Shown: piece by piece, positions 5,368-40,279 of the stretch | How positions within the stretch are numbered: the first letter of the stretch is position 1 | Layout: each line of letters begins with the position of its first letter | Made by a program: the position numbers and the translations under genes | The notes under the pieces: generated by a model | What the model saw: only the letters and a program-made list of their open reading frames with translations | Told to the model about the DNA's origin: nothing | Databases searched by the model: none | IMG/VR virus record: IMGVR_UViG_3300037722_000838 | Location: 1-43,061 of that record | DNA length: 43,061 nt | Origin: a virus | Taxonomy: Duplodnaviria; Caudoviricetes | Direction: 5' to 3' (one strand)

Positions 5368-5702
5368 GCGAAGTCGAGGAGCTCAGGGAGGCGACCCGTC
5401 ACGCCCACGAGGCGATTAAGGACCTGCGGGGTGTGATCCGCGAGGCCAATGAGACGGTGGCCGAGGTGCAGAAGTTTATGCACGACTCGGTCAGCGACCG
5501 GCTTGATGCCGAAGTGGCCCGGGGCCTCCAGGAGTACAAGACCGCGATCTCTGCGGCCATCGAGGACGCCACCGACCGGGTCTTCAAGCGGTTCGACTAC
5601 CTCGCTGAGTTGCTCATGGGCGAGGACCGGAAGAGCCGCCGTATGAGGAAGAAGTCGATCCCCGATTTCATCAGCGACATGACAGGAGGGACGGAGGGGT
5701 GA
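5364..5702 (+). CDS. Coiled-coil hypothetical protein
   Basis: ATGA overlap; MSEVEELREATRHAHEAIKDL; helical heptads. Confidence 0.7.
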   Translation: MSEVEELREATRHAHEAIKDLRGVIREANETVAEVQKFMHDSVSDRLDAEVARGLQEYKTAISAAIEDATDRVFKRFDYLAELLMGEDRKSRRMRKKSIPDFISDMTGGTEG

Positions 5703-7487: not shown

Positions 7488-7777
7488 GAAAGATACCGCG
7501 GAGCCCAGACCGCATCCACGAGCACAACGAGAAGTGGAAGCGGCGCTACCACGTCCGCGCTCAACTGCGGGACCGCTACCCCGATGAGTTCCAAAAGCTC
7601 CGGGAGGAAACAACCTATTTCGTGGCGCTTCGACTCATCGAGGAGGCTCACCCAGGCGAGATCCCGATCGAGCCGCCGGGTCCGGTCGGTAAGCAGGCGA
7701 TCGGGAAGCTGCGCTGTGCGACTTGTGGGGATCTGCTCAGCCTTCACACGCTCACGCAAGCGGAGGCGTGCCGATGA
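7484..7777 (+). CDS. Hypothetical protein with C-terminal Zn motif
   Basis: GTGA coupling; CATC...H...C. Confidence 0.6.
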   Translation: MRKIPRSPDRIHEHNEKWKRRYHVRAQLRDRYPDEFQKLREETTYFVALRLIEEAHPGEIPIEPPGPVGKQAIGKLRCATCGDLLSLHTLTQAEACR

Positions 7778-8703
7778 GCTATCACGGTGTTGAGATCCCC
7801 ACCGAAAGTCGCGACGACTGGCTCGAGAAGCGGCGCAAAGGGATCGGCGCGTCCGACGTCGCCGGCATTCTCGGAGTCTCCCCTTGGTCGTCGCCGTTTT
7901 CCGTCTACGCGGACAAAGTCCACCAGGTCGAGAAAGAGAAAACGGAAGCAATGGGGTGGGGACAGAAGCTCGAGGCCGTGGTTGCTGACGAGTTCGAGGA
8001 GGTCACCGGGCTCTACGTCCATGACCGTCAGATGCTGGTTGCGCACCCTGAGTATCCGTGGGCGACCGCCACGGTCGACGGTCTCGAGTACGAGTCGCAC
8101 ACACCGGAGAGCCGAGCCGACTCCATCGGGCTCTACGAGGGGAAGACCGAAGCGTTGTTCGGGCGGTGGGATGAGATCCCCGACCACTACCAGATCCAGG
8201 TGCAGTGGCAGATGTGGGTGACTGGCCACGACGGCGGTCACCTGGTCTGTCTCCACGGCGGCCGCCAGTTCGAAATCTACGAGATCGAAAGGGACGCCGG
8301 GTTGATCAACCGGATTGTGGATCTTGTCTCCGAGTTCCGGGGGAAGCATCTGACGGGCGGGCTGACCGGGGAGCTACCGCCTCCTCCGGAGGTGGATGAG
8401 CATTTGGCGACCACGCGCGTCATAGCTGACCTTTGGTCGGATCCGGTGGAGGGTGCGGTGGTCGACCTTCCGACTGATGTGGCTTTCGATCTTGGTGTGT
8501 TGCGTGGGGTGAAAACCGAGATTTCCCGGTTGGAGAAGGAGAAGAAGCGGTTGGAGAACCGGGTGAAGGCGGCGTTGGAGGACGCGGAGGTGGGGTTGGT
8601 GTCGGGGGTGCCTGCTGTGACGTGGAAGAAGGTTTACCGGAAGATGTACACGGTGCCGGCCGGGGAGTACAGAAGGCTAAATGTGATCAAGGAGAAGGAA
8701 TGA
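7774..8703 (+). CDS. YqaJ-like viral recombinase / lambda-type exonuclease
   Basis: WLEKRRKGIGASD, WGQKLE, ATVDG, YEGKT, YQIQVQWQM motifs; paired with RecT. Confidence 0.92.
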   Translation: MSYHGVEIPTESRDDWLEKRRKGIGASDVAGILGVSPWSSPFSVYADKVHQVEKEKTEAMGWGQKLEAVVADEFEEVTGLYVHDRQMLVAHPEYPWATATVDGLEYESHTPESRADSIGLYEGKTEALFGRWDEIPDHYQIQVQWQMWVTGHDGGHLVCLHGGRQFEIYEIERDAGLINRIVDLVSEFRGKHLTGGLTGELPPPPEVDEHLATTRVIADLWSDPVEGAVVDLPTDVAFDLGVLRGVKTEISRLEKEKKRLENRVKAALEDAEVGLVSGVPAVTWKKVYRKMYTVPAGEYRRLNVIKEKE

Positions 8704-14981: not shown

Positions 14982-15710
14982 TCAGTCGGCCAGCCGCTCC
15001 GAGAACTCGTCGGCGATCTCCGCAGCCACTTCGGCTTTGACCTTCTCGGCGATCTGAGCGCCCAACGCAGCAATGTCCTCAGCCGACAGGGACACTTCGG
15101 GGGATTCGGCGGCGACCTGTTCGATGAGCTGGCGGGAGACAGCGGCGTCCACACGAGCCCGGTAGGCGTCACCTCTCGCTCCAGCGAGGAGCGCCTGTGC
15201 GCCCCGCTGGTTGCCGGTGACAGGGTCGGTGACCAGCCTGTACCAGATGGCGTCGATGTCGTCGTTGGTTAGTGGCATGTTTTCTCCTAGGTCCCATTCG
15301 TGGGTTTGGTCTGCGATCGTTGTGGCGACAACTGAGAGGTGGCCGTGGTTGATGTGGCCGTTGACTCCGGTGTACTCCCGCCACTCCCACGCCGGGCCTT
15401 TGCTGTTGGAGTAGGAGGCGAACATCCGCTCGTCGTGGATGAAGTATTTGAGGCGGGGATCTTTGGATGCGCGGAGGGCTTCGCCGATCGCGTCAACAAA
15501 CCCGGGCTCATGTTCGAAGAAGTCGAGCGCCCGGACGATCCCGTCGTCGTCGCGATTGTGGTCGGAGGTCCGATTGGAATGCTCGAGGTCGCCGAGTGTG
15601 CCGTCCACCGTGTACGAGTTGGTGTGGCCGCGGGCTTCCATGATCTGGTCGCCGAACGTTTCGATCGACCCGGCGACTCGCCACCCGTTGCCCGAGTACC
15701 TAAACGGCAT
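14982..15710 (-). CDS. Endolysin, Zn-peptidase (M15/Hedgehog-like) type
   Basis: DGTLGD..H....SDHN...VRALD...KYFI...YTGVNGHINHGHLS metal-ligand pattern; located in the lysis cluster. Confidence 0.8.
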   Translation of the reverse strand: MPFRYSGNGWRVAGSIETFGDQIMEARGHTNSYTVDGTLGDLEHSNRTSDHNRDDDGIVRALDFFEHEPGFVDAIGEALRASKDPRLKYFIHDERMFASYSNSKGPAWEWREYTGVNGHINHGHLSVVATTIADQTHEWDLGENMPLTNDDIDAIWYRLVTDPVTGNQRGAQALLAGARGDAYRARVDAAVSRQLIEQVAAESPEVSLSAEDIAALGAQIAEKVKAEVAAEIADEFSERLAD

Positions 15711-15978
15711 CGCTTCGACTCCCGGTGGCGTGCGCGGCGATATGGTCGTCGACTCTCTGGGCGATCCCCTCGAGAGCTTCGGGAAGGTTGTCCCAGCCGT
15801 TGGGCCACAGCGTGCCGGGATCTTCGATCCGGCTGTACCGGATCAGCCCGGTTTCCAACAGGACGTCTCTGGTGATCGCTTTCAACCAGCGGGTGATCCG
15901 TCCACCGAGGGTCAGCAGTCCGAGCAGGACAGCGATAACCGAGGCGGCGACACCGATGAGTAGGGAGAAGAAATCCAT
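15700..15978 (-). CDS. Membrane protein of the lysis cluster
   Basis: N-terminal TM followed by a short coiled coil. Confidence 0.7.
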   Translation of the reverse strand: MDFFSLLIGVAASVIAVLLGLLTLGGRITRWLKAITRDVLLETGLIRYSRIEDPGTLWPNGWDNLPEALEGIAQRVDDHIAAHATGSRSDAV

Positions 15979-16200
15979 TTAGACCGCTCCGCTTTTGATC
16001 CGCTGGTTCAGTAGTTCCGACGGCCGGTTTTCGGTCGCTCCGTACCCGGCGAGGAACACGAACCACAGCATGTTCCAAGCAACGTCGACCGGGTGGAGCG
16101 AAACCTCATAAACCTGGTAGACCACGGTCACCCCGAAGGCGTAGATGGTGCCGGCGAGGAACACTCCGGTCATCTTCGAGGTCGGGAGCCAACGTTGCAT
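15979..16200 (-). CDS. Two-TM membrane protein (possible second holin)
   Basis: PTSK...TM...TM...AGYGATE. Confidence 0.65.
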   Translation of the reverse strand: MQRWLPTSKMTGVFLAGTIYAFGVTVVYQVYEVSLHPVDVAWNMLWFVFLAGYGATENRPSELLNQRIKSGAV

Positions 16201-16470: not shown

Positions 16471-16484
16471 TTGGGTTACCTCCC

Positions 16485-16493
16485 TGGTAATGT
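16485..16493 (+). promoter_or_regulatory. Extended -10 promoter for the antisense cassette
   Basis: TGGTAATGT (TGnTAnnnT) just upstream of the structured leader. Confidence 0.55.
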
Positions 16494-16496
16494 CAG

Positions 16497-16590
16497 GTGC
16501 CGGGATAGACCGACGGGTCGAAAAGGTGGTGGTTCCGTCCCCGCCCTGCCCGGCACAACCAAAGGACGGAGCATCTGACGGAGGTGCAAT
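16497..16590 (+). ncRNA. Structured cis-regulatory RNA leader (three-way junction plus RBS hairpin)
   Basis: P1 GTGCCGGG/CCCGGCAC; P2 GACC-gacg-GGTC; P3 GGTGGTGG/CCCCGCC; TCCGTC(C) complementary to GGACGGA (16564) and GACGGA (16577); SD within the GCATCT/AGGTGC stem. Confidence 0.6.
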
Positions 16591-16800
16591 ATGGATTGCG
16601 AGACAACAACGCTGTCGGACGGAACCGTGATCTGCCACCTAGTGCCGCTGCCGACGTTGGTTCCGGCAGAGACAACCACTACAACGGTGCCAGACGTGCT
16701 GCCCATGACCGGGTTCGATCCGGTGGTGGGTGTGGTTGGGACGCTGGTGCTCATCCTCGGGGCAGCGCTAGTTCGAGTCGTTTCACCTTCTCGGAAATGA
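16591..16800 (+). CDS. LPxTG sortase-substrate mini-protein (69 aa)
   Basis: SD GGAGGT; Cys pair, TTTTT linker, LPMTG, hydrophobic helix, basic tail RVVSPSRK. Confidence 0.7.
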   Translation: MDCETTTLSDGTVICHLVPLPTLVPAETTTTTVPDVLPMTGFDPVVGVVGTLVLILGAALVRVVSPSRK

Positions 16801-17884
16801 CTGCAACAACCGCCCGTAAGTCATAGATCTCTTCCTCATAGGCTTCGGGGACAGCCTCGTGGACATGCTCGGCGCCGAAACCGAGCCGCACCTGGCCGTT
16901 CTCGTCGGTCCAGCGGATCGGTGTGGGTAGCACGAAATCTGCCGCGTCGGGTGCCCACCTCCAGTCCGGCTTGTATTTGAGAGAGGAGGTGGAACGAAAA
17001 ACCGTGTTTCCGCTGGCTGTTTGCACAAGGTTCGCCGCGGCAGCGTTTGTAGTGGAGTGCGGTCTGATCCCGCCACCGTCAACGATAAACCTGACCGCGC
17101 CGCCGATTATCGTATGGAGTACGTCGCCTCCCGGCCACCGAAGTCCGGTGTCTGTATCACCAAGACCAGCTAGTCCAGGGGTTAAGACCCCAACGAAATC
17201 ACCGCCGCCAGTCACGGCTAATTGCGCAATGGCGTTTGGCCCGTCTTGGAATCTTCCCCGGATCGTTCCAGCGTCAAGAAACGCGATACCTGCGTCCGAT
17301 GACAACCCTAACCGGTTATCTATTACGATCGTACCGGGGTCGTATAATGAGGCTGAGAACCCCATCCGTCCGACCTCGGTACCAGCGCTGTTGAACATTC
17401 GTGTGAACGCTTCCGCCGTGTCACCTCTGATTTCATACCGCTCTCCGCTGGCTGCTGTTCGGAAGCGGATAGCGGTGATAATCCCCGCGTTGATCTTGTC
17501 CGCGCTGAGGTCGTTGATTTTGGCGTTGGTGATCTGAGCATCCGCGATCTTCGCGGTAGTGATCTGAGCATCCGCGATCTTCGCGGTGGTCACCGCCAGG
17601 TTCGCGATCTTGACCGTCGTCACCGCACCATCCGCCAACAAATCAGTGGTGATAACCCCCGCATTCAAATGCAACGTCGTCGCCTGAATCGCACCCGCCG
17701 ACGAATCCAACAAAAACCCTTTAGTCGCATCCGTATCAGGACCCGCCGACAGATCCCCACCACCATCCCAATTGAACGAACGGATATCCCCCCGAAGTGT
17801 CACATTCCCCAGATTGGAAATGTCCTCCGGGTGGACCGTCTGAGGTACCGGCAACGCCGGGAACGGGTCATGCCGAGATGTCAT
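16751..17884 (-). CDS. Tail fibre/spike with C-terminal intramolecular chaperone (S74-like)
   Basis: 10-aa ITTAKIADAQ repeats; STSSLKYK cleavage motif, GFGAEHV, terminal coiled coil. Confidence 0.8.
   Translation of the reverse strand: MTSRHDPFPALPVPQTVHPEDISNLGNVTLRGDIRSFNWDGGGDLSAGPDTDATKGFLLDSSAGAIQATTLHLNAGVITTDLLADGAVTTVKIANLAVTTAKIADAQITTAKIADAQITNAKINDLSADKINAGIITAIRFRTAASGERYEIRGDTAEAFTRMFNSAGTEVGRMGFSASLYDPGTIVIDNRLGLSSDAGIAFLDAGTIRGRFQDGPNAIAQLAVTGGGDFVGVLTPGLAGLGDTDTGLRWPGGDVLHTIIGGAVRFIVDGGGIRPHSTTNAAAANLVQTASGNTVFRSTSSLKYKPDWRWAPDAADFVLPTPIRWTDENGQVRLGFGAEHVHEAVPEAYEEEIYDLRAVVAVISEKVKRLELALPRG
17529..17587. repeat. 30-bp period tandem duplication in the tail fibre
   Basis: GTGATCTGAGCATCCGCGATCTTCGCGGT occurs twice, identically. 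Confidence 0.85.
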
Positions 17885-25256: not shown

Positions 25257-25284
25257 GTGATCGACACACTAACATAGAGCCTCA

Positions 25285-27197: not shown

Positions 27198-27258
27198 CGA
27201 CGGCCCCCTAGCCCATTACCCGACGGCTTCGTCCGACTGGACAATATCAGACAGGGCA

Positions 27259-32619: not shown

Positions 32620-33128
32620 GCCGTCCTAGCTATGTCGCGGCGCCGCAGGTTCTCTTGTGTCGTCACGGGTTCTAAGTCACCGGGATTGACACAAGGCCGA
32701 TTGAAACACAAGTGGTCGAGCTCCAGGCCCTCGGGAATCGGCCCCACCAGAAGCTCATACGCGAAGCGGTGGGCGCGTACAAACCGGCCGTCGACACCCA
32801 GCACGCCATATCCGTCCTTGTCGGTCGTCCCGGTCCACACCCAACAGCCGTCACTAATGAGCACCTTCGACCAAAAGCGCCGCCAGTCATTACCGACAAT
32901 CAGACCGGTCTTCTCTGGGTCGCCGTGTTTCCGCCACCGCTGATAGTGCTTCTCGCAGAGGCCTTTCGCTTTGTGGGGTTCTTCGCAGCCAGCCACCTCA
33001 CAACCGATTCGACTCTGTATCCGCAGGATCTTCTTCGGGTCCCGATACTTCAACCACCGCCGATAGTGCTTATTGCACAGCCCTCGCGCGTGAGGCGTCT
33101 TAGCGCATTCTTCGACTGAACAGATCAT
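32616..33128 (-). CDS. HNH homing endonuclease with two N-terminal Zn knuckles
   Basis: CSVEEC..GLCNKHY and CEVAGC..GLCEKHY, then RFWSKV...LDHLCFNRPCVNP...TTQEN. Confidence 0.9.
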   Translation of the reverse strand: MICSVEECAKTPHARGLCNKHYRRWLKYRDPKKILRIQSRIGCEVAGCEEPHKAKGLCEKHYQRWRKHGDPEKTGLIVGNDWRRFWSKVLISDGCWVWTGTTDKDGYGVLGVDGRFVRAHRFAYELLVGPIPEGLELDHLCFNRPCVNPGDLEPVTTQENLRRRDIARTA

Positions 33129-36100
33129 GACTGGCCCTCCGCAAGTATGGCCTCTAAGTCTAGAACCCGACCTCCAGTCCCGGCGCCTCTGGGATTGTCA
33201 GCACTAAACACAGACGGATCCCAAATGGGTACCCCGTCAATGTATAACCAGGCCAAGAGTCTGCGTTCTCCGGGTGCCGACAGTTGAGTCAAGCCAAACA
33301 ATTCTGGTCGATAGATCCCAAGGGTGATCTCCTCGGCCCCGGCGACGACTCGCGCCAATTGCTCCCTCGCTTCCGAATACCCCGGCTGCGTCACCTCCGG
33401 CGCATTTAGGCCTACGAACCGAACCCGCATCGGTCCGTCTTCGAGGAGGATCGACACGGTGTCCCCATCAATCACCGCCAGATCATTCAAGTCGTCGCCT
33501 GCCACCTGGATGCCCGACTCGAGGTCGGCGACTGGCGGCGGGACTGGCGGGGTGTAGTCGATCGGACCGAAGATCGGTTCTATCTCCTGGCGGTAATCAG
33601 CCAGAGTGGTGTAGCCAAGGTTGATGGCTTCGGTGAACCGGGAGCGGATCTCCGCCAACGTTTCTTCTGGCCAGTCCTCCATGCTCTCGATCCCCTGGTC
33701 CTGGAAGTACTTGTCGGCCTCGCCCAGATCGTCGAGCAGTCCCGTCCCGAAAGCGTCGCCGTGTTTGGCAAGCTGGCCGTGCACCGCCCCATTCTGCAAT
33801 GTGTTCAACAGGACCGGTTGAGCCACCTTGAACCGCTCATCGAAGTCGCCGATCAAAGAGTGGAACTCCCCGTAGGTGAGTTCGGTCCCGGCGGTCAGAT
33901 CCATCCCCGCCGCCGCCAACACTTTCGCTTCGTTCTCACCGAGGACAAACGACTTCGCCGCCAACGATTCGGAGATCCGACCGGACCACGGCTTGTAAGA
34001 AATCCACTCCCACACTCCATGGACCGCCCGGGCCCCGGACTTGTATACCGCTGCGGCGGCGTCGAACGCCCACTCCTCCACAGGACGCGAAACGATCCAC
34101 CCGTTCTTTCGGGCGTCTGACATCAGCTCAGACCCTTCGGGACCGGGCGGGACATTCTGGGTTCTTCCCGTCAGGGCGCTGATGTAGGTGTTCTTGAATT
34201 CGGCGTGGTCGTCGGAGCGGACCGGGATCCCCGAATCCTCGGTTTTCCCGATCAGGTTCACCGCGATCTCCGGGTGGATCAGGTGGAGGTAGTCCATGAA
34301 ACTGAATCCGGGATACACCTCGCGGCGTCCCGCCTCGAAGTACGCGGTGGTGAGTCGATCCCGTAAGAACTCAAGGTCGTCAGGGGCGGCGGTCCCCTCG
34401 AGGTATGAGTCCCAGATCGCTTTGATCCGCGGTTGGCCTTCGACGTCGAGGAGGTCGTTCTGTTGGAAGATCCCCGCCGACGACATCGACGCGAACACTT
34501 CCTCATCGAACAATCCTTCGTAGGCGCGGAGAGCCCGGTACTCGGCGTCGTAGCCGGTGAGAGGAAACACTCGGTCCCTGAGGTCCTGGTTCCACTCCTG
34601 GCGGTTTGCTTCGATCGCGCCTTTGACCGCGATCTCGCCGATCCGCTGGTTGAACTCGTCCGACCCCGGGACCAACGCCCAGATGCTCGCCTCGCCGTCG
34701 AGGTCCTCCTTGAAGAAGTCGGAGATCATCGACACTTGGAAGTCCCCCGTCGCTGACGGCACTTTCCCGTCAAGGACGATGTTGGTCAGCGACGCGCCGA
34801 GCCCGGTGTCGGTGTGGACATCCTCACCGAAAAACGTGTACCCGAGACGAGAGGCGCTGCCGGCGAGATCGCGCAGCGAACGACGCGACGTCGGGATCAC
34901 CCGGTCGAACATCTCCTCGAGGACACCACCCTCGCCGACCTCGGTGAACCCGAGCGCGGGGAACAACGTCTCGAAAGCGTCGATCGTCTCATCGTCAAAC
35001 ATGCCCTTGTCGACCATCAGGTCGAACATCCACGACGGCAGAGCCCCGAACTGAGGGGACACGTCCAACAGGAATTCTTGGTCGAAGTGGAACGGGAAGA
35101 AGGTCAGGTTGTCGATCGTCTGGTCGAGGAAACTGTCATGCTCGTTGTTCACCCCGGCGACGAGGTGGGAGAACTTCCCGAAAGCGCGGGCGTTGATCGG
35201 AATCCGTTCCACCGTCTGAGAGAGCGCCTGGTTGATCCTGGGGAACTTGGCCCGCGCCTCGAGAGGGATTCTCAGTGTCATCGGCTTGGTCAGGTGGTCG
35301 GACCACCACGACAGGAAATCCATTTGTGCCCTGGCAAACGGGAACATCAGCCCGGCCTCAACCCCGCGTCCGGCGAGCGACGACGCGGTGAACCGGTACA
35401 TCAGGTCATCGGCCCGCCGTTCGGCGTAGGCGGCGGCCCGAGCCTGTATCTGCGATTCGAGTTTCGCTCCGGTCTGGCGGACAAGGTGGGATACCGTCTG
35501 GTTGTCCATCCCCTGTTTCAGCATGAACTGTGCTTCCTCGATCGGCTTTTTGGCGTAGTCCGCCACCGTCTCCGCGGTGAGGACCTTGCTTCCGTGACGG
35601 GTGCGGAGAATGTCCATCGCCTCATCGAAGTAGTGCTCGAAGAACACCCCGGCGCGCCTTCCCGACGGAGCCCCGAAAAAAGTGTTGAAGATCGACGTTC
35701 CCGGCCCGGTCTTCCCGCTCAGCCCCGGCACCTGCTCTATCGCGTTGAGCAGCGACGCGTCCTTCACCACGTCGAGCCGTCCGCCCTCCGATGTTGCTGC
35801 CTTCCTCAACGCCCGGCGCATCGCGTTCCGCTGGTTCGGTTTGACCAACAGCTCGATCCAATGCTCGAAAGCGTTGTCGATGATGCCGAATGCTTCGTTG
35901 GCGGTGAGCTCGGTCCCCATCTTCACCGATTCGCGGATCGTGACTTTGGTCTGGCGGGCCTCCGCTTTCCCTGGTCGTCCGGTCCCCGCGCCGTTGTCCC
36001 ACCAGTCGATGAACCCCTGTGGGGCGATCTTGGTTCCGTCCTCGAGGATCTGGGCTTCGTCAATCCACCGGGCGTACTCACGGAACCTGGTGTCTTGGAG

Positions 36101-39100
36101 CAACGTCCCGTTCACCCACCGTTCCGCCTGCTCCCGGAAGTCGGCCTGTTTGAAACCTGGTGATCCTGCCCGGCGTCCTGGGTTTTTCACCCAGTCGTAG
36201 TTGGAGTAGTCGTCGGCGGACCACCCCCCAACATTGCGGCGGTACTGCTGTGCGTAAGGGTTCGGCATCGACTTTGTGAACTTCTGCACAAAGTTCGACT
36301 TCGCAAAGCTCTCCGTCCCCCGGCCCACAGCCGGGATCCCCGCAAGGGTCGCCCTTGTAAACTTGCCGACCTGACCGGTGTCCGCCAGGAACCGCAGAGT
36401 CTCATCCAGGGTCACCTTTCCCGCGGTGACCGGGTTAACTAGAAGGTTCATCGCAAACGCGAACTTCATCCCCCCAACAACCTTCTTGACCCGCTCCCCT
36501 CGCAGCACGTTTGTCACCTTCGCCAACGCGTTCGGGTTCCCGGCGATCTTCTCGTACAAGATCACCTCATACGGAGACGCCGGCAGCAGCACCTTCTGTG
36601 ACCGGTTGAACATCCCCACCGCGTCGAGACCGCGGGACATGTCCACGTCGTCGACAGCGAGCCCCATCCACAACCTGAGGTCCTGGTCGTCGCCTGCCAC
36701 CGACCGTTTCACCCCCGTCACGGCCGACCAGTCCCGCACCGGGATCTCCGGCGCCAACGGGTTTACGTTCTTGGTGACCGGCAGTATCCCCTCACCGAAC
36801 TTCGCTTCGAGCCTCTGGGCGATCTCCTCGTACAACTCAGCGATCACACCCGCCATCTCGTTGCGCGCCGCGTTCGCGACGTCGGCTTCGAGGTATGCCG
36901 CTTTGCCCAACTGCTCATGCGCCACCCGCCGCTTGTCGGCGACCCGACCAAGTTTCACTTGAGCGTCGGCGTACCGCCGCGACATCGTGGCGTGAGTCTG
37001 TTCGAGCTGCTCGCGGACCGCGGCTTTCGCTGCGTCGTCGGCGGTCAGGTTGTCCACCTTGGTCAAAGCGTCCTCGATCGCCGTCAGGTTCTCGCCCACC
37101 GCTTTGAGGTCGTCGGTCCCGGTGATCGCCGTCCTGGTCCCCGCCGACTCCCACAGCGACCGGCGCGCCGACTCTTTCATCGCCTGGTTCGCTCCCTGCA
37201 ACGCCAACTCATCACCTGCCGACGACACACGGCGCACCGCGTCAAGAAAGAACCTGGTGTAAGTGTCGGCGTCGCGGGGGAAGAATTGGGTGAGCATGTC
37301 GGCGAAAACGTCGAGGGACTGGTTCTCACCGAGCCTGACAGTCCGTCCGACGCTGAACTTGGTGAGCATTTGCATCAGCGGCCCGAGGTGCTCGTCGGAG
37401 ATTTTGCCACCGGCGATCGACTCGAGCATCCGACCTACCCCTTCGACGGTGGAGTGGCGTTGGGCTCGCATCGGTCCTTCACCGAGGTAGTCTTTGCCCA
37501 TCCCCCGGATCAGCACATCCTCGATCTGTTCTCTCGTCGCGTTCGGATCCATTGCAAGGTTGACCAGGTCGATCATGTCGATGTTGTCTAGGCCCGACAT
37601 TGATGACGCTACTTTGACTCCACGCGGATTGACGTAGCCACCGGAGAGCGCCGGGTACTCGTCGCCGATCCGGAACCCGAGACGTTCGGCCACCTCCGCG
37701 GCATCGCGACCGATGTATTCCTCGAGTCCGATGTAAGACCGGAACCCGCTCTCCATAGCGTCGGGGACCACCGCTTTCCCGTAACCGTTCTCGCGCATCC
37801 ACTGAGCGGTCGCCTCGAACCGGTCCTCATGTGCCTCCCAGTTCTCAAGGACGAACCCCCGTTTGGTCGCACGTGGCTGCTTCACCCCTTCGGGTGTGAA
37901 CACCCGGTAGTACGTCCCCTCATCGACCCGCTGCACCAGCCGGTCCGCTTGCAACGCATCGAGCAACCCGGCCGGCAGATCGCCAGGGTCGATGAACCCG
38001 CTGAGGTCTAACTCTCTGCCGAACACCGCCTGCACCCGCACCTGCGGCGCCCGGTCCGGTCGAAGTTGACGGACCCCTATCTCGTCCAACCCCCAATTGG
38101 TTGACTCCACAACCTCTTTCAGATGCTCGCCCGACCGAATCAGAATCGGGCCGTCCTCAATCTCCAAGAACAGGGACGCCTCCGGGTCGACCAGTCGGTC
38201 GTAATCCTCGACAGTCAAGTCCTCGAGATCGACGTTCCGTCCCAACAATTCATCGAGGCTTGAGGAAGGTGAACCGGCATCGGCGAAGGCTGACGCCACC
38301 GCCGGGTCGTCACTGAAATAGAACTTGCCGCCCTGCCCGGCCCGTTGACCGCCGGTCGTCCGACCTCGGAACCCAGCCTGCGAAGCGTCGAACACATCGA
38401 ACGTCTGCGAGGTGCCGTGGTAGAGAACCTTGCCCGTTTCGGCTAGTTCGTCCACCGTCCCGAAAGGCACCGGGCTCTGAGCCAGCGCCTTCTCTAGTGG
38501 CGGAGACGTCACGCCTTTGATGACGCCCTCAGCAATATCCTCTAGGTTCGACTTCCCCACGATTGCTTTTATCGCGCTGGGATAGGAACCCATCCTCATG
38601 TACACCCTGGCGTACTTCGGGTTAGTCAACGCCTTCCGGGCTACCGCCCTCATCCCCTTCGCACCAGGAAAAACGAAGTTGAACGGGTCGAACAACCCGC
38701 CAACCACCAGGTTCGCCGCGTCCGCCGCTCCGCCCTCCAACCCGAAGTACTCAGCGGCGGTCATCACGTTCACGCCGAGCACCTGCTCACGGTGGGCATC
38801 GGTTTCGCCCGGCGCCTCGAAAACCTGTTGGAGCCGGGTGAACCCTTCCTCCCAGTCTCCGCCGACGAACTCACCTCCAGCACCGAAGATGTCCTTCCAC
38901 GCGTCGATGGCGGCGACCCCGAGCGTCTGGCTGAACATGTCCCACGCCTCAAACACCTCAAGCGTCTTCCCCAGTCCGGTTTCGACAGCCTCCCCCAGCG
39001 CCGAGCGCCCCTCCGCCTCGGCTTCGAGCTCGGTGAGAATCTCCTCCGACGTCATCGCCCGGAAATCGGTCAGCATCTCCTCGCGGTTCTCGTCAACAAT

Positions 39101-40279
39101 CTCCGCGGCCAGCTCAAGCGCCGTCGCCGAGTCCAACTCCCCTTCGGCGTCGCCCATCATCGCCCGAGCGATCGAAGCAATGATCATGCCCTCGGGAAGC
39201 GGGATCACCGACGCCAACCGGACCGACTCCTCGGTGATCTCCCCCTTCTCATCTCGGATCCGGTTCGCCCGCCTCTCCTCGATGTCCTCAACATCCTGCT
39301 GGGTCAACCCTCCCCACAGAGCATCGATACTGGTCCGCGCCGTCGGGTTGTTCTCCAAGAAACTGCCGATCGAATGCGCGGTGTCCATGATCGCTTGAAC
39401 CGCGCCACGACCATGCTCCGGTGTGAGTTGGCCGCCAGCAACCCGCCCGTCGGCCTGAGCGGACACCACTTCGGCCATCACATCGAGATGGTTCTTCGGG
39501 TCGAACCCCGCCCTGGCTTCAATCCCGATCGTCTCCTCCCTGTCACCCTCACCGATCGTCACCGCGAGAATCCCCGACGACGGGGAAAACGACCACGCAC
39601 CCGGTACATCGAACAGGTTCTCGAATGTCTGCGCTCGCGTCAGCCCGCCACCGACCGCCTCACCGCCAGCCCGACGACGGTCGCCTTCAATCCCCAGGTC
39701 CGGAGCGTCGGGAAGGTCCATGTCCGCCAGCTCCATCGCAGCCGATCCGGTCAGCGCCTCGAACGTCCCCGACATCGCATCCGCCTGCTCAAGTTCGAGC
39801 TGGTGTGCGAGTTCGGTCGCACCCACCTCCCAAGCCACCTCCGCCACCGCGTCGAACACGTCACCGAACTGGCTGACAGGCTCACCCCGCATGATCTTCT
39901 CCGCGATCTCAATGTCGGTGAGAGCGAACAACGCGTTGACGTCTGAGTTGAGAGCACCTGTTAGAGCAGGGTCACCGGCGGTCATCTCCAGGAAGCGGTC
40001 GGCGATCGGGTCGACCACACTCGAAAAGTCCATTCCCGGAATCCGGTTCCCCAAATGGAGGGCGACCGCCGCCTGGACCGTCTGACGCTGCTTCGAGAAT
40101 TCGAGGGCGCTCTCACCGATCACCGCAGCCCGACCCGCAGCGTCAGCGGCCACACTCTGTTTCACCGCCGGTTTCGACATCGCTTTAACGCCCGTCACAG
40201 GCGCAGTCCCCAACGCTTTGTCAGGGTCGTAGGCGGCTGGGTCGGTGTAGAACTTCCGGTCGGCGGGATCGATCGGCAC
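33125..40279 (-). CDS. Giant polyvalent internal virion/ejection protein with ART-like and C-terminal SNase-like domains
   Basis: 2384 aa; LYHGTSQTFDVFD...GKFYFSDDPAVASAFA...ENGYG (ART-PolyVal-like); VIDGDTV...RVRFVGLNAPE...RRLLAWLYIDG (thermonuclease-like). Confidence 0.8.
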   Translation of the reverse strand: MPIDPADRKFYTDPAAYDPDKALGTAPVTGVKAMSKPAVKQSVAADAAGRAAVIGESALEFSKQRQTVQAAVALHLGNRIPGMDFSSVVDPIADRFLEMTAGDPALTGALNSDVNALFALTDIEIAEKIMRGEPVSQFGDVFDAVAEVAWEVGATELAHQLELEQADAMSGTFEALTGSAAMELADMDLPDAPDLGIEGDRRRAGGEAVGGGLTRAQTFENLFDVPGAWSFSPSSGILAVTIGEGDREETIGIEARAGFDPKNHLDVMAEVVSAQADGRVAGGQLTPEHGRGAVQAIMDTAHSIGSFLENNPTARTSIDALWGGLTQQDVEDIEERRANRIRDEKGEITEESVRLASVIPLPEGMIIASIARAMMGDAEGELDSATALELAAEIVDENREEMLTDFRAMTSEEILTELEAEAEGRSALGEAVETGLGKTLEVFEAWDMFSQTLGVAAIDAWKDIFGAGGEFVGGDWEEGFTRLQQVFEAPGETDAHREQVLGVNVMTAAEYFGLEGGAADAANLVVGGLFDPFNFVFPGAKGMRAVARKALTNPKYARVYMRMGSYPSAIKAIVGKSNLEDIAEGVIKGVTSPPLEKALAQSPVPFGTVDELAETGKVLYHGTSQTFDVFDASQAGFRGRTTGGQRAGQGGKFYFSDDPAVASAFADAGSPSSSLDELLGRNVDLEDLTVEDYDRLVDPEASLFLEIEDGPILIRSGEHLKEVVESTNWGLDEIGVRQLRPDRAPQVRVQAVFGRELDLSGFIDPGDLPAGLLDALQADRLVQRVDEGTYYRVFTPEGVKQPRATKRGFVLENWEAHEDRFEATAQWMRENGYGKAVVPDAMESGFRSYIGLEEYIGRDAAEVAERLGFRIGDEYPALSGGYVNPRGVKVASSMSGLDNIDMIDLVNLAMDPNATREQIEDVLIRGMGKDYLGEGPMRAQRHSTVEGVGRMLESIAGGKISDEHLGPLMQMLTKFSVGRTVRLGENQSLDVFADMLTQFFPRDADTYTRFFLDAVRRVSSAGDELALQGANQAMKESARRSLWESAGTRTAITGTDDLKAVGENLTAIEDALTKVDNLTADDAAKAAVREQLEQTHATMSRRYADAQVKLGRVADKRRVAHEQLGKAAYLEADVANAARNEMAGVIAELYEEIAQRLEAKFGEGILPVTKNVNPLAPEIPVRDWSAVTGVKRSVAGDDQDLRLWMGLAVDDVDMSRGLDAVGMFNRSQKVLLPASPYEVILYEKIAGNPNALAKVTNVLRGERVKKVVGGMKFAFAMNLLVNPVTAGKVTLDETLRFLADTGQVGKFTRATLAGIPAVGRGTESFAKSNFVQKFTKSMPNPYAQQYRRNVGGWSADDYSNYDWVKNPGRRAGSPGFKQADFREQAERWVNGTLLQDTRFREYARWIDEAQILEDGTKIAPQGFIDWWDNGAGTGRPGKAEARQTKVTIRESVKMGTELTANEAFGIIDNAFEHWIELLVKPNQRNAMRRALRKAATSEGGRLDVVKDASLLNAIEQVPGLSGKTGPGTSIFNTFFGAPSGRRAGVFFEHYFDEAMDILRTRHGSKVLTAETVADYAKKPIEEAQFMLKQGMDNQTVSHLVRQTGAKLESQIQARAAAYAERRADDLMYRFTASSLAGRGVEAGLMFPFARAQMDFLSWWSDHLTKPMTLRIPLEARAKFPRINQALSQTVERIPINARAFGKFSHLVAGVNNEHDSFLDQTIDNLTFFPFHFDQEFLLDVSPQFGALPSWMFDLMVDKGMFDDETIDAFETLFPALGFTEVGEGGVLEEMFDRVIPTSRRSLRDLAGSASRLGYTFFGEDVHTDTGLGASLTNIVLDGKVPSATGDFQVSMISDFFKEDLDGEASIWALVPGSDEFNQRIGEIAVKGAIEANRQEWNQDLRDRVFPLTGYDAEYRALRAYEGLFDEEVFASMSSAGIFQQNDLLDVEGQPRIKAIWDSYLEGTAAPDDLEFLRDRLTTAYFEAGRREVYPGFSFMDYLHLIHPEIAVNLIGKTEDSGIPVRSDDHAEFKNTYISALTGRTQNVPPGPEGSELMSDARKNGWIVSRPVEEWAFDAAAAVYKSGARAVHGVWEWISYKPWSGRISESLAAKSFVLGENEAKVLAAAGMDLTAGTELTYGEFHSLIGDFDERFKVAQPVLLNTLQNGAVHGQLAKHGDAFGTGLLDDLGEADKYFQDQGIESMEDWPEETLAEIRSRFTEAINLGYTTLADYRQEIEPIFGPIDYTPPVPPPVADLESGIQVAGDDLNDLAVIDGDTVSILLEDGPMRVRFVGLNAPEVTQPGYSEAREQLARVVAGAEEITLGIYRPELFGLTQLSAPGERRLLAWLYIDGVPIWDPSVFSADNPRGAGTGGRVLDLEAILAEGQS

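Follow-up and report, generated by a model that had tools for sequence, protein, structure and literature searches.

A temperate phage carries a predicted int-alpA-led mini-gene for a sortase-type anchor without a signal peptide

Phage-borne LPXTG proteins are already known, and SasX, reportedly a larger secreted protein, is one of them. It is an LPXTG protein encoded on a phiSPbeta-like prophage of S. aureus ST239 (PMC6048232). Like SasX, the 69-residue protein described here is phage-carried and would be wall-anchored; unlike SasX, it belongs to another host phylum and follows an int-alpA leader RNA, which is not reported for SasX in the part of the source available to us (PMC6048232). The first-pass annotation of this locus had stated that no described phage system like this was known to it. 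Phage-borne LPXTG proteins exist; for a signal-less one we found no precedent. Literature titles and abstract openings contained neither a signal-less phage sortase substrate nor a sortase decoy. A small Streptomyces sortase substrate was not found on searching and is not used in our reading.

Proteins inserted by YidC offer a second comparison. In the available parts of the cited papers, Oxa1/YidC is described as moving tails of up to about 50 residues (PMC7616256), and the insertion of MifM by SpoIIIJ needs acidic amino acids within the N-tail (PMC8920935). The YidC-inserted Pf3 coat and MifM resemble our protein in their short acidic N-tail, single transmembrane helix and basic C-side (PMC8920935, PMC7616256). 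However, neither of them is a sortase substrate, and for the mini-protein we infer the YidC route.

The leader provides a third comparison. int-alpA (Rfam RF02996, an entry typed Gene; sRNA) is a catalogued orphan RNA class. The motif is reportedly attributed to an RNA-motif survey. Its name is absent from the main text of PMC5737381. A literature search for the term gave two papers, one of which uses it for the RNA, in a table. The RNA described here matches the Rfam model over its full length and has the same three-way-junction core, but it appears to act as the 5' leader of an envelope gene, and the pairing of its loop with two downstream sites is not part of the Rfam model.

The window, that is the whole stretch of DNA that was analysed, is a complete virus record of 43,061 bases with direct terminal repeats at its ends. 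Its genes include terminase, tyrosine integrase, repressor, RecE/RecT, HNH genes, capsid protein and tail fibre, from which we consider the phage temperate. The late genes are on the minus strand. The cassette and its neighbours are as follows:

14982..16200, minus strand, likely lysis genes, comprising two small ORFs of hydrophobic character plus one for an endolysin-like protein of 242 aa
16213..16470, minus strand, 85-aa late gene with no assigned function, whose Shine-Dalgarno sequence lies directly upstream of the cassette -10 on the other strand
16485..16493, plus strand, predicted extended -10 (TGnTAnnnT), TGGTAATGT, called from sequence and position
16497..16569, plus strand, int-alpA RNA (RF02996) with a three-way junction, from cmscan and the MFE fold
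16497-16504/16549-16556, plus strand, leader stem P1, from the MFE fold
16508-16519, plus strand, leader stem P2 with a GACG tetraloop
16525-16545, plus strand, leader stem P3
16531..16540, plus strand, variable P3 loop, complementary to two downstream sites
16564..16572, plus strand, site 1, the decoy pairing site for the P3 loop
16577..16585, plus strand, site 2, overlapping the Shine-Dalgarno GGAGGT
16580-16585, plus strand, Shine-Dalgarno GGAGGT
16591-16800, plus strand, mini-gene of 69 aa, supported by codon test, anchor homology and model
16751..17884, minus strand, tail-fibre gene, from PHROG tail-fibre matches

Every element that had been listed for the plus-strand cassette between the tail fibre and the likely lysis genes was present in the sequence. 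We assign the lysis function to 14982..16200 as likely, from the position and from conserved His/Asp residues. No Pfam family was found for the endolysin-like protein, and against PDB it gave a weak match to 9flh (E 8e-4), in which the chain is named LysM domain-containing protein. Its family (window 14982-15710) has conserved His/Asp residues, is without a Pfam family in 21 of 22 members and counts hundreds of relatives in viral and metagenome contigs. Elsewhere in the window, a 2384-aa ORF (33125-40279), whose single weak match is a C-terminal endonuclease PHROG, is possibly an ejected internal virion or polyvalent protein. An inverted repeat at 2780-2845 sits within a long, AT-richer gap downstream of the integrase side and is a possible terminator, operator or attP arm site.

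Judging by integrase matches and anchor type, the host would be an Acidimicrobiia bacterium. The integrase matched in 4 of 301 Acidimicrobiia genomes (E <= 1e-40; 38-52% identity) and in 1 of 301 genomes of a phylum-wide sample (40-41% identity). The endolysin-like gene also matches contigs labelled as several other phyla, the RecT matches pointed to no host, and we found no attP/attB match or tRNA that would fix it. One Logan contig spans the cassette with zero differences and may be the source of the same DNA.

The claim that the cassette is self-contained was too strong. The last 16 codons and the stop of the tail-fibre gene lie antisense to the final 50 nt of the mini-gene (16751-16800), and no plus-strand terminator was found after 16800 in a simple scan, which can miss actinobacterial terminators. 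Apart from this terminator, the cassette has what is expected of a moron: a predicted promoter and RBS of its own, insertion in the late region, and cargo that varies between phages.

The predicted extended -10 ends 12 nt before the int-alpA core. Among 71 distinct upstream regions of the int-alpA family, window included, 10 of the 13 extended -10 sites are located 10-15 nt from the RNA core. The window has 5 TGnTAnnnT sites where 16 are expected, so the pattern by itself shows no enrichment, and the support for the promoter call is positional. Upstream of the cassette -10 we found no -35 element. Three further TGnTAnnnT sites (2688-2696, 25266-25274 and 27241-27249) are intergenic, on the minus strand and upstream of ORFs, and are likely phage promoters.

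The first-pass annotation had described a structured leader of about 95 nt. It proved to contain the catalogued int-alpA RNA, matched at 16498-16569 with 42.2 bits (cut-off 35.8, E 2.3e-7) over positions 1-71 of the 71 in the model, which is the sole Rfam match above cut-off anywhere in the window. The MFE and centroid folds agree on the three-way junction, but the fold stability itself is not unusual (z = -1.34). A search of viral contigs with the leader core pattern, over 43 of 64 parts of the collection, gave at least 119 loci, and the resulting set has 81 distinct sequences, window included; a narrower pattern gave 2 loci, both on contigs of the wider set. At the P2 pair that the pattern leaves open, all 81 leaders have a standard pair, and five pair types occur. 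The free base of the P2 loop is G in 80 of 81, hence the loop is GACG. Such a tetraloop is known to kiss in gamma-retroviral RNA, according to the available part of PMC5874298. In int-alpA, the conserved tetraloop suggests RNA-RNA kissing or a protein ligand as a possible trigger. Of 5 phage records, G303 (see below) alone contained RF02996; none of 150 genomes of the likely host class did, in an uninformative run that gave no positive-control match. A blastn search of the leader against annotated phages gave chance matches only.

The P3 loop is the part of the leader that points to regulation. Its predicted duplex has -16.6 kcal/mol with site 1 and -10.9 kcal/mol with site 2, and none of 63 other family loops achieves two sites of at least 6 nt on the window leader. 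We compared 64 distinct loops with the next 50 nt downstream, a set in which kinship is reduced but still present and the likely false member L329 is kept. The longest loop-target match had a mean of 5.83 nt, against 4.25 +/- 0.12 in permuted pairs (maximum 4.56 in 200), and two pairing sites were seen for 89% of loops, against 45% in permuted controls. As judged from these sequences, loop-target complementarity is shown to covary across the int-alpA family. Since the loop matches the RBS of the plus-strand ORF, the leader is tied to that ORF. The proposal that the mini-gene is riboregulated is thereby strengthened, by an int-alpA leader and by a loop-to-RBS match that covaries. The P3 loop could toggle: when on the decoy, where pairing is stronger, the RBS would be free, and when on the RBS, translation would be off. 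We rejected another mechanism, in which loop-decoy pairing melts a local hairpin at the Shine-Dalgarno sequence; its unpaired probability was 0.39 when free and 0.41 with site 1 blocked.

The mini-gene starts with ATG at 16591, at normal spacing from the Shine-Dalgarno sequence, and an in-frame TGA (16576-16578) closes its frame five codons upstream. With codon models trained on 22 window genes, the plus frame outscores each of the five shadow-frame models, with margins of 7.1-24.6 nats that lie toward the lower edge of those of true genes. Its CAI is 0.63 (true genes 0.68 +/- 0.09, shadows 0.59 +/- 0.07). An ORF with LP.TG, transmembrane stretch and basic tail did not appear in any of 150 order-4 Markov copies of the window, and 119 unrelated loci (453 kb) contained zero LP.TG matches and two junk LA.TG matches. 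The codon statistics thus look coding, with a low-end margin, in agreement with the original call of a real plus-strand gene.

In the encoded protein, C3-x11-C15 is followed by a Thr run, LPMTG at 37-41, a hydrophobic stretch at 44-64 (19-residue hydropathy up to 2.44) and a basic tail (R62/R68/K69). The Cys-x11-Cys loop that had been noted is therefore there as C3 and C15, with a putative disulfide between them. A single-sequence AlphaFold model (pTM 0.33) has residues 3-7/13-17 as a beta-hairpin and 44-64 as a helix, with a stalk modelled at low confidence; this would place both cysteines in the predicted N-terminal hairpin, followed by a Pro/Thr stalk. The first 35 residues contain no basic residue and no long hydrophobic stretch, consistent with the earlier remark that a signal peptide is missing.

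With LPXTG substrates of the Acidimicrobiia LPFTG type the mini-protein shares the motif, the glycine-bearing hydrophobic helix, the basic tail and the Thr-rich stalk. In contrast to them it has no signal peptide and just 36 residues before the motif, is missed by curated HMMs and is encoded by a phage. The sorting signal read from the letters is supported by homology to Acidimicrobiia anchors, but not through the TIGR01167/Gram_pos_anchor check that had been proposed for it: TIGR01167 and PF00746 gave no match to the mini-protein at E <= 1. These curated models are weak on this anchor type, as they matched 6 and 10 of 24 aligned rows, respectively (E <= 0.1). Among 1.84 billion representatives we found, besides the protein itself, P0003 and P0002, neither of them close. 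P0003 is the informative independent match (E 7.1e-4, anchor region); it was not found in viral contigs. P0002, an 813-aa repeat protein, was rejected as a spurious match. Within the likely host class, 88 of 301 genomes gave matches to an alignment of three anchors, query included. A host-anchor HMM from 35 host segments ranked the mini-ORF first of 837 window segments (E 8.2e-9, 30.4 bits; next 12.3 bits), a test with some circularity, as the alignment used to find its loci contained the query. The mini-protein keeps the full host anchor consensus, with the invariant L, P, T and G and the transmembrane glycine. By sequence comparison, it ends in an Acidimicrobiia-type LP(F/M)TG anchor. No close homologue was found in viral or metagenome contigs, a search of 5.8 billion proteins returned only the protein itself, and there were no PHROG, Pfam or NCBIfam matches. 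The ESM Atlas matches were all below 0.9 and serve as leads only.

Other short proteins with this anchor exist. A profile search of 35-137-aa proteins gave at least 55 matches besides the query, with the best 8000 candidates scored. By a crude rule, 19 of the 55 combine the anchor with a signal peptide and a short linker. Among these minis, 4 have a Cys pair after the signal peptide, two of them nearly identical. The other 36 have no signal peptide by the rule, two have one by eye, and many of them look like cut or mis-started gene calls. Six short host frames and L365 included no convincing signal-less mini-gene with a clear start. The nearly bare sorting signal, which had been read from this locus, is therefore not unique; since bare-anchor minis exist, the odd feature is the missing signal peptide. 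The signal-bearing mini class (83-132 aa, short linker, LPFTG) includes P0050, P0053, P0068, P0070, P0075-P0077, P0084 and others. P0070, P0076 and P0084 resemble the window protein in having nearly no passenger domain, some with a Cys pair at the mature N-terminus, but unlike it they carry a signal peptide.

How could such a protein reach the wall? Its N-tail of about 44-45 residues has 6 acidic residues and no Lys/Arg, and the tail at the other end has 3 basic residues. An acidic N-tail and a basic C-tail fit N-out insertion without a signal peptide, and export of the N-tail by the YidC route is likely by analogy. The phage window contains no sortase gene, while sortase is present in 141 of 151 genomes of the class to which the host would belong.

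Other phages help to judge the slot. In phage G303, int-alpA (40.2 bits) drives an antisense gene for a secreted DUF3152 protein, located between genes for a tail protein and an amidase. The DUF3152 gene overlaps the end of the tail gene and faces away from the amidase, a layout like that of the window, and by eye the leader flanks of G303 are the most similar to those of the window. This DUF3152 protein (G303:C1 32651-33490; L349 1501-2340) has an HEVGH motif, and its leader shows two-site pairing at -11.4 and -5.3 kcal/mol. Phage G304 (L220 1888-3129; also L219) encodes a 413-aa LPFTG protein on the late strand, just upstream of an M15 endolysin region, with a signal peptide, Thr-rich linkers and an HhH_3 domain; in the pattern scan that gave this protein, 3 of 5 loci were not sorting signals. 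In the stretches fetched, no protein common to the window and G303/G304 was detected. L136 (2-733) has a Thr-rich LPFTG protein in an early region, cut by the contig end, which is the sole such ORF in 215 loci, and shares the endolysin-like gene with the window at 64%. In L001 this gene is 73% identical, and the slot is taken by another small ORF, hydrophobic and antisense, which follows a hairpin other than int-alpA. The tail region of L001 includes an antisense hydrophobic protein with a Cys pair and a hairpin-plus-SD leader (7636-7960) and an antisense lipoprotein-like Thr-rich protein (5410-5700). Since L001 and G303 have unrelated cargo there, the slot behaves as a variable moron site. 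A search with the tail-fibre gene gave 40 loci, matched mostly through a short internal repeat, and was uninformative for the slot.

Behind int-alpA, envelope cargo is rare. Leaving the window aside, there were 80 distinct leaders, and we scanned the 71 that have an ORF of at least 60 aa downstream, some of them cut by locus ends. The 71 genes comprised 12 of nuclease type, 9 antirepressor/Bro/Rha, 4 DUF1376/HTH_36, 6 others and 40 without a family, so that nucleases, antirepressors and likely replication initiators make up 25 of the 31 family-assigned genes. By analogy, this leader class suggests limited output. The only envelope case, by eye, was G303; none of 73 was flagged by a hydropathy filter, which did not pick up G303 either.

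Taken together, we read the cassette as a lysogenic-conversion moron for metered display of a wall-anchored peptide of about 40 residues on the lysogen, with a probability of roughly one half. Transcription would start at the extended -10, opposite to the late operon and probably in the lysogen, and late transcription would be antisense to the cassette. The acidic N-tail of about 44 residues would insert N-out through YidC, with no need for a signal peptide. Host sortase would then cut between T40 and G41 and link a hairpin-plus-Thr stalk of about 40 residues to peptidoglycan, and the displayed peptide would modify the lysogen surface, most plausibly phage adsorption or attachment. The first-pass annotation had offered display and a sortase decoy, and we regard display as the better of the two.

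The most serious alternative, which we consider less probable, is that the ORF is a remnant or recent capture, i.e. the 3' end of an LPXTG gene from host or phage that came to lie behind a promoter-leader-RBS unit left by earlier int-alpA cargo; it may be translated, with nothing selected. In its favour, the mini-protein is a singleton, it looks like the mature end of longer proteins, a short Pro-rich motif is common to it and the L136 protein, and the gene has neither a stop nor a terminator outside the tail-fibre gene. That complete-looking short host-type LPFTG proteins carry signal peptides (the 19 minis above) and that the slot holds unrelated cargo in other phages also agree with it. However, the normal spacing of the ATG, both pairing sites, and the motif, transmembrane stretch and basic tail are all intact, and the length and charge of the N-tail fit signal-less export. 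Moreover, 4 of the 19 minis with signal peptides likewise have a Cys pair at their mature N-terminus, so that the mini-protein looks like a whole mature protein and not a random cut.

A canonical LPxTG substrate is turned over by sortase and would not block the enzyme. This speaks against the sortase decoy, in which the peptide would occupy host sortase, lower the anchoring of pili or receptors and so exclude superinfection. The minimal passenger domain, the genuine anchor, the moron position and the frequency of sortase in the likely host class would suit a decoy, and the accessible part of PMC9282373 describes a small membrane protein, SafA, that modulates an actinobacterial sortase, though it is no substrate. 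Nevertheless, the leader class points to limited output, where a competitive decoy would need the reverse, phages that carry LPFTG proteins carry long display-type ones, and the literature listings contain no such case. We therefore find the decoy and superinfection-exclusion idea unsupported, and improbable.

Small membrane morons that act in exclusion are common, and the mini-protein could be one: inserted, uncleaved, an entry blocker or toxin-like, with a vestigial LPMTG. A single predicted transmembrane helix without a signal peptide and the different small transmembrane ORF in the same slot of L001 fit this, but the full host anchor consensus, with its invariant L, P, T and G and transmembrane glycine, has been kept, and we hold this to be quite improbable. 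The weakest alternative, that the real gene is the minus-strand 92-aa ORF (16476-16754) and the LPMTG ORF its shadow, is very improbable. At its start this ORF has an ATGA overlap with the tail-fibre stop, and it ends at the Shine-Dalgarno sequence of the following late gene. Its third codon positions coincide with those of the plus frame, so that GC3 cannot separate the two, but it loses to a shadow model by 10.4 nats with a CAI of 0.49 (distal part 0.42), has no Shine-Dalgarno sequence at the usual spacing and is absent from the protein collection, where gene callers recorded the plus-strand 69-aa ORF. It also crosses, in antisense, an intact int-alpA RNA with a loop that targets the RBS of the plus strand.

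It is conceivable, though doubtful, that the int-alpA switch meters a signal-less sortase substrate that uses the YidC route, and that the anchored peptide masks or mimics a phage receptor or ties up the host sortase. Such a switch might include copy-number sensing through kissing of GACG loops.

The value of the case is limited since the protein is a singleton and the host is uncultured. Each part of the cassette belongs to a known kind; the combination is new, and so is the absence of a signal peptide. Several uncultured phages, likely actinobacterial, carry wall-anchored or secreted cargo beside their tail and lysis genes. With loop, decoy and RBS within 60 nt, the cassette is a compact test case for the function of int-alpA, and the mini-gene bears on the question whether export of a sortase substrate is possible when a signal peptide is missing. 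If the int-alpA switch operates as outlined, the phage would have a minimal way of displaying a peptide on the cell wall, and an orphan RNA class would have a use that faces the envelope.
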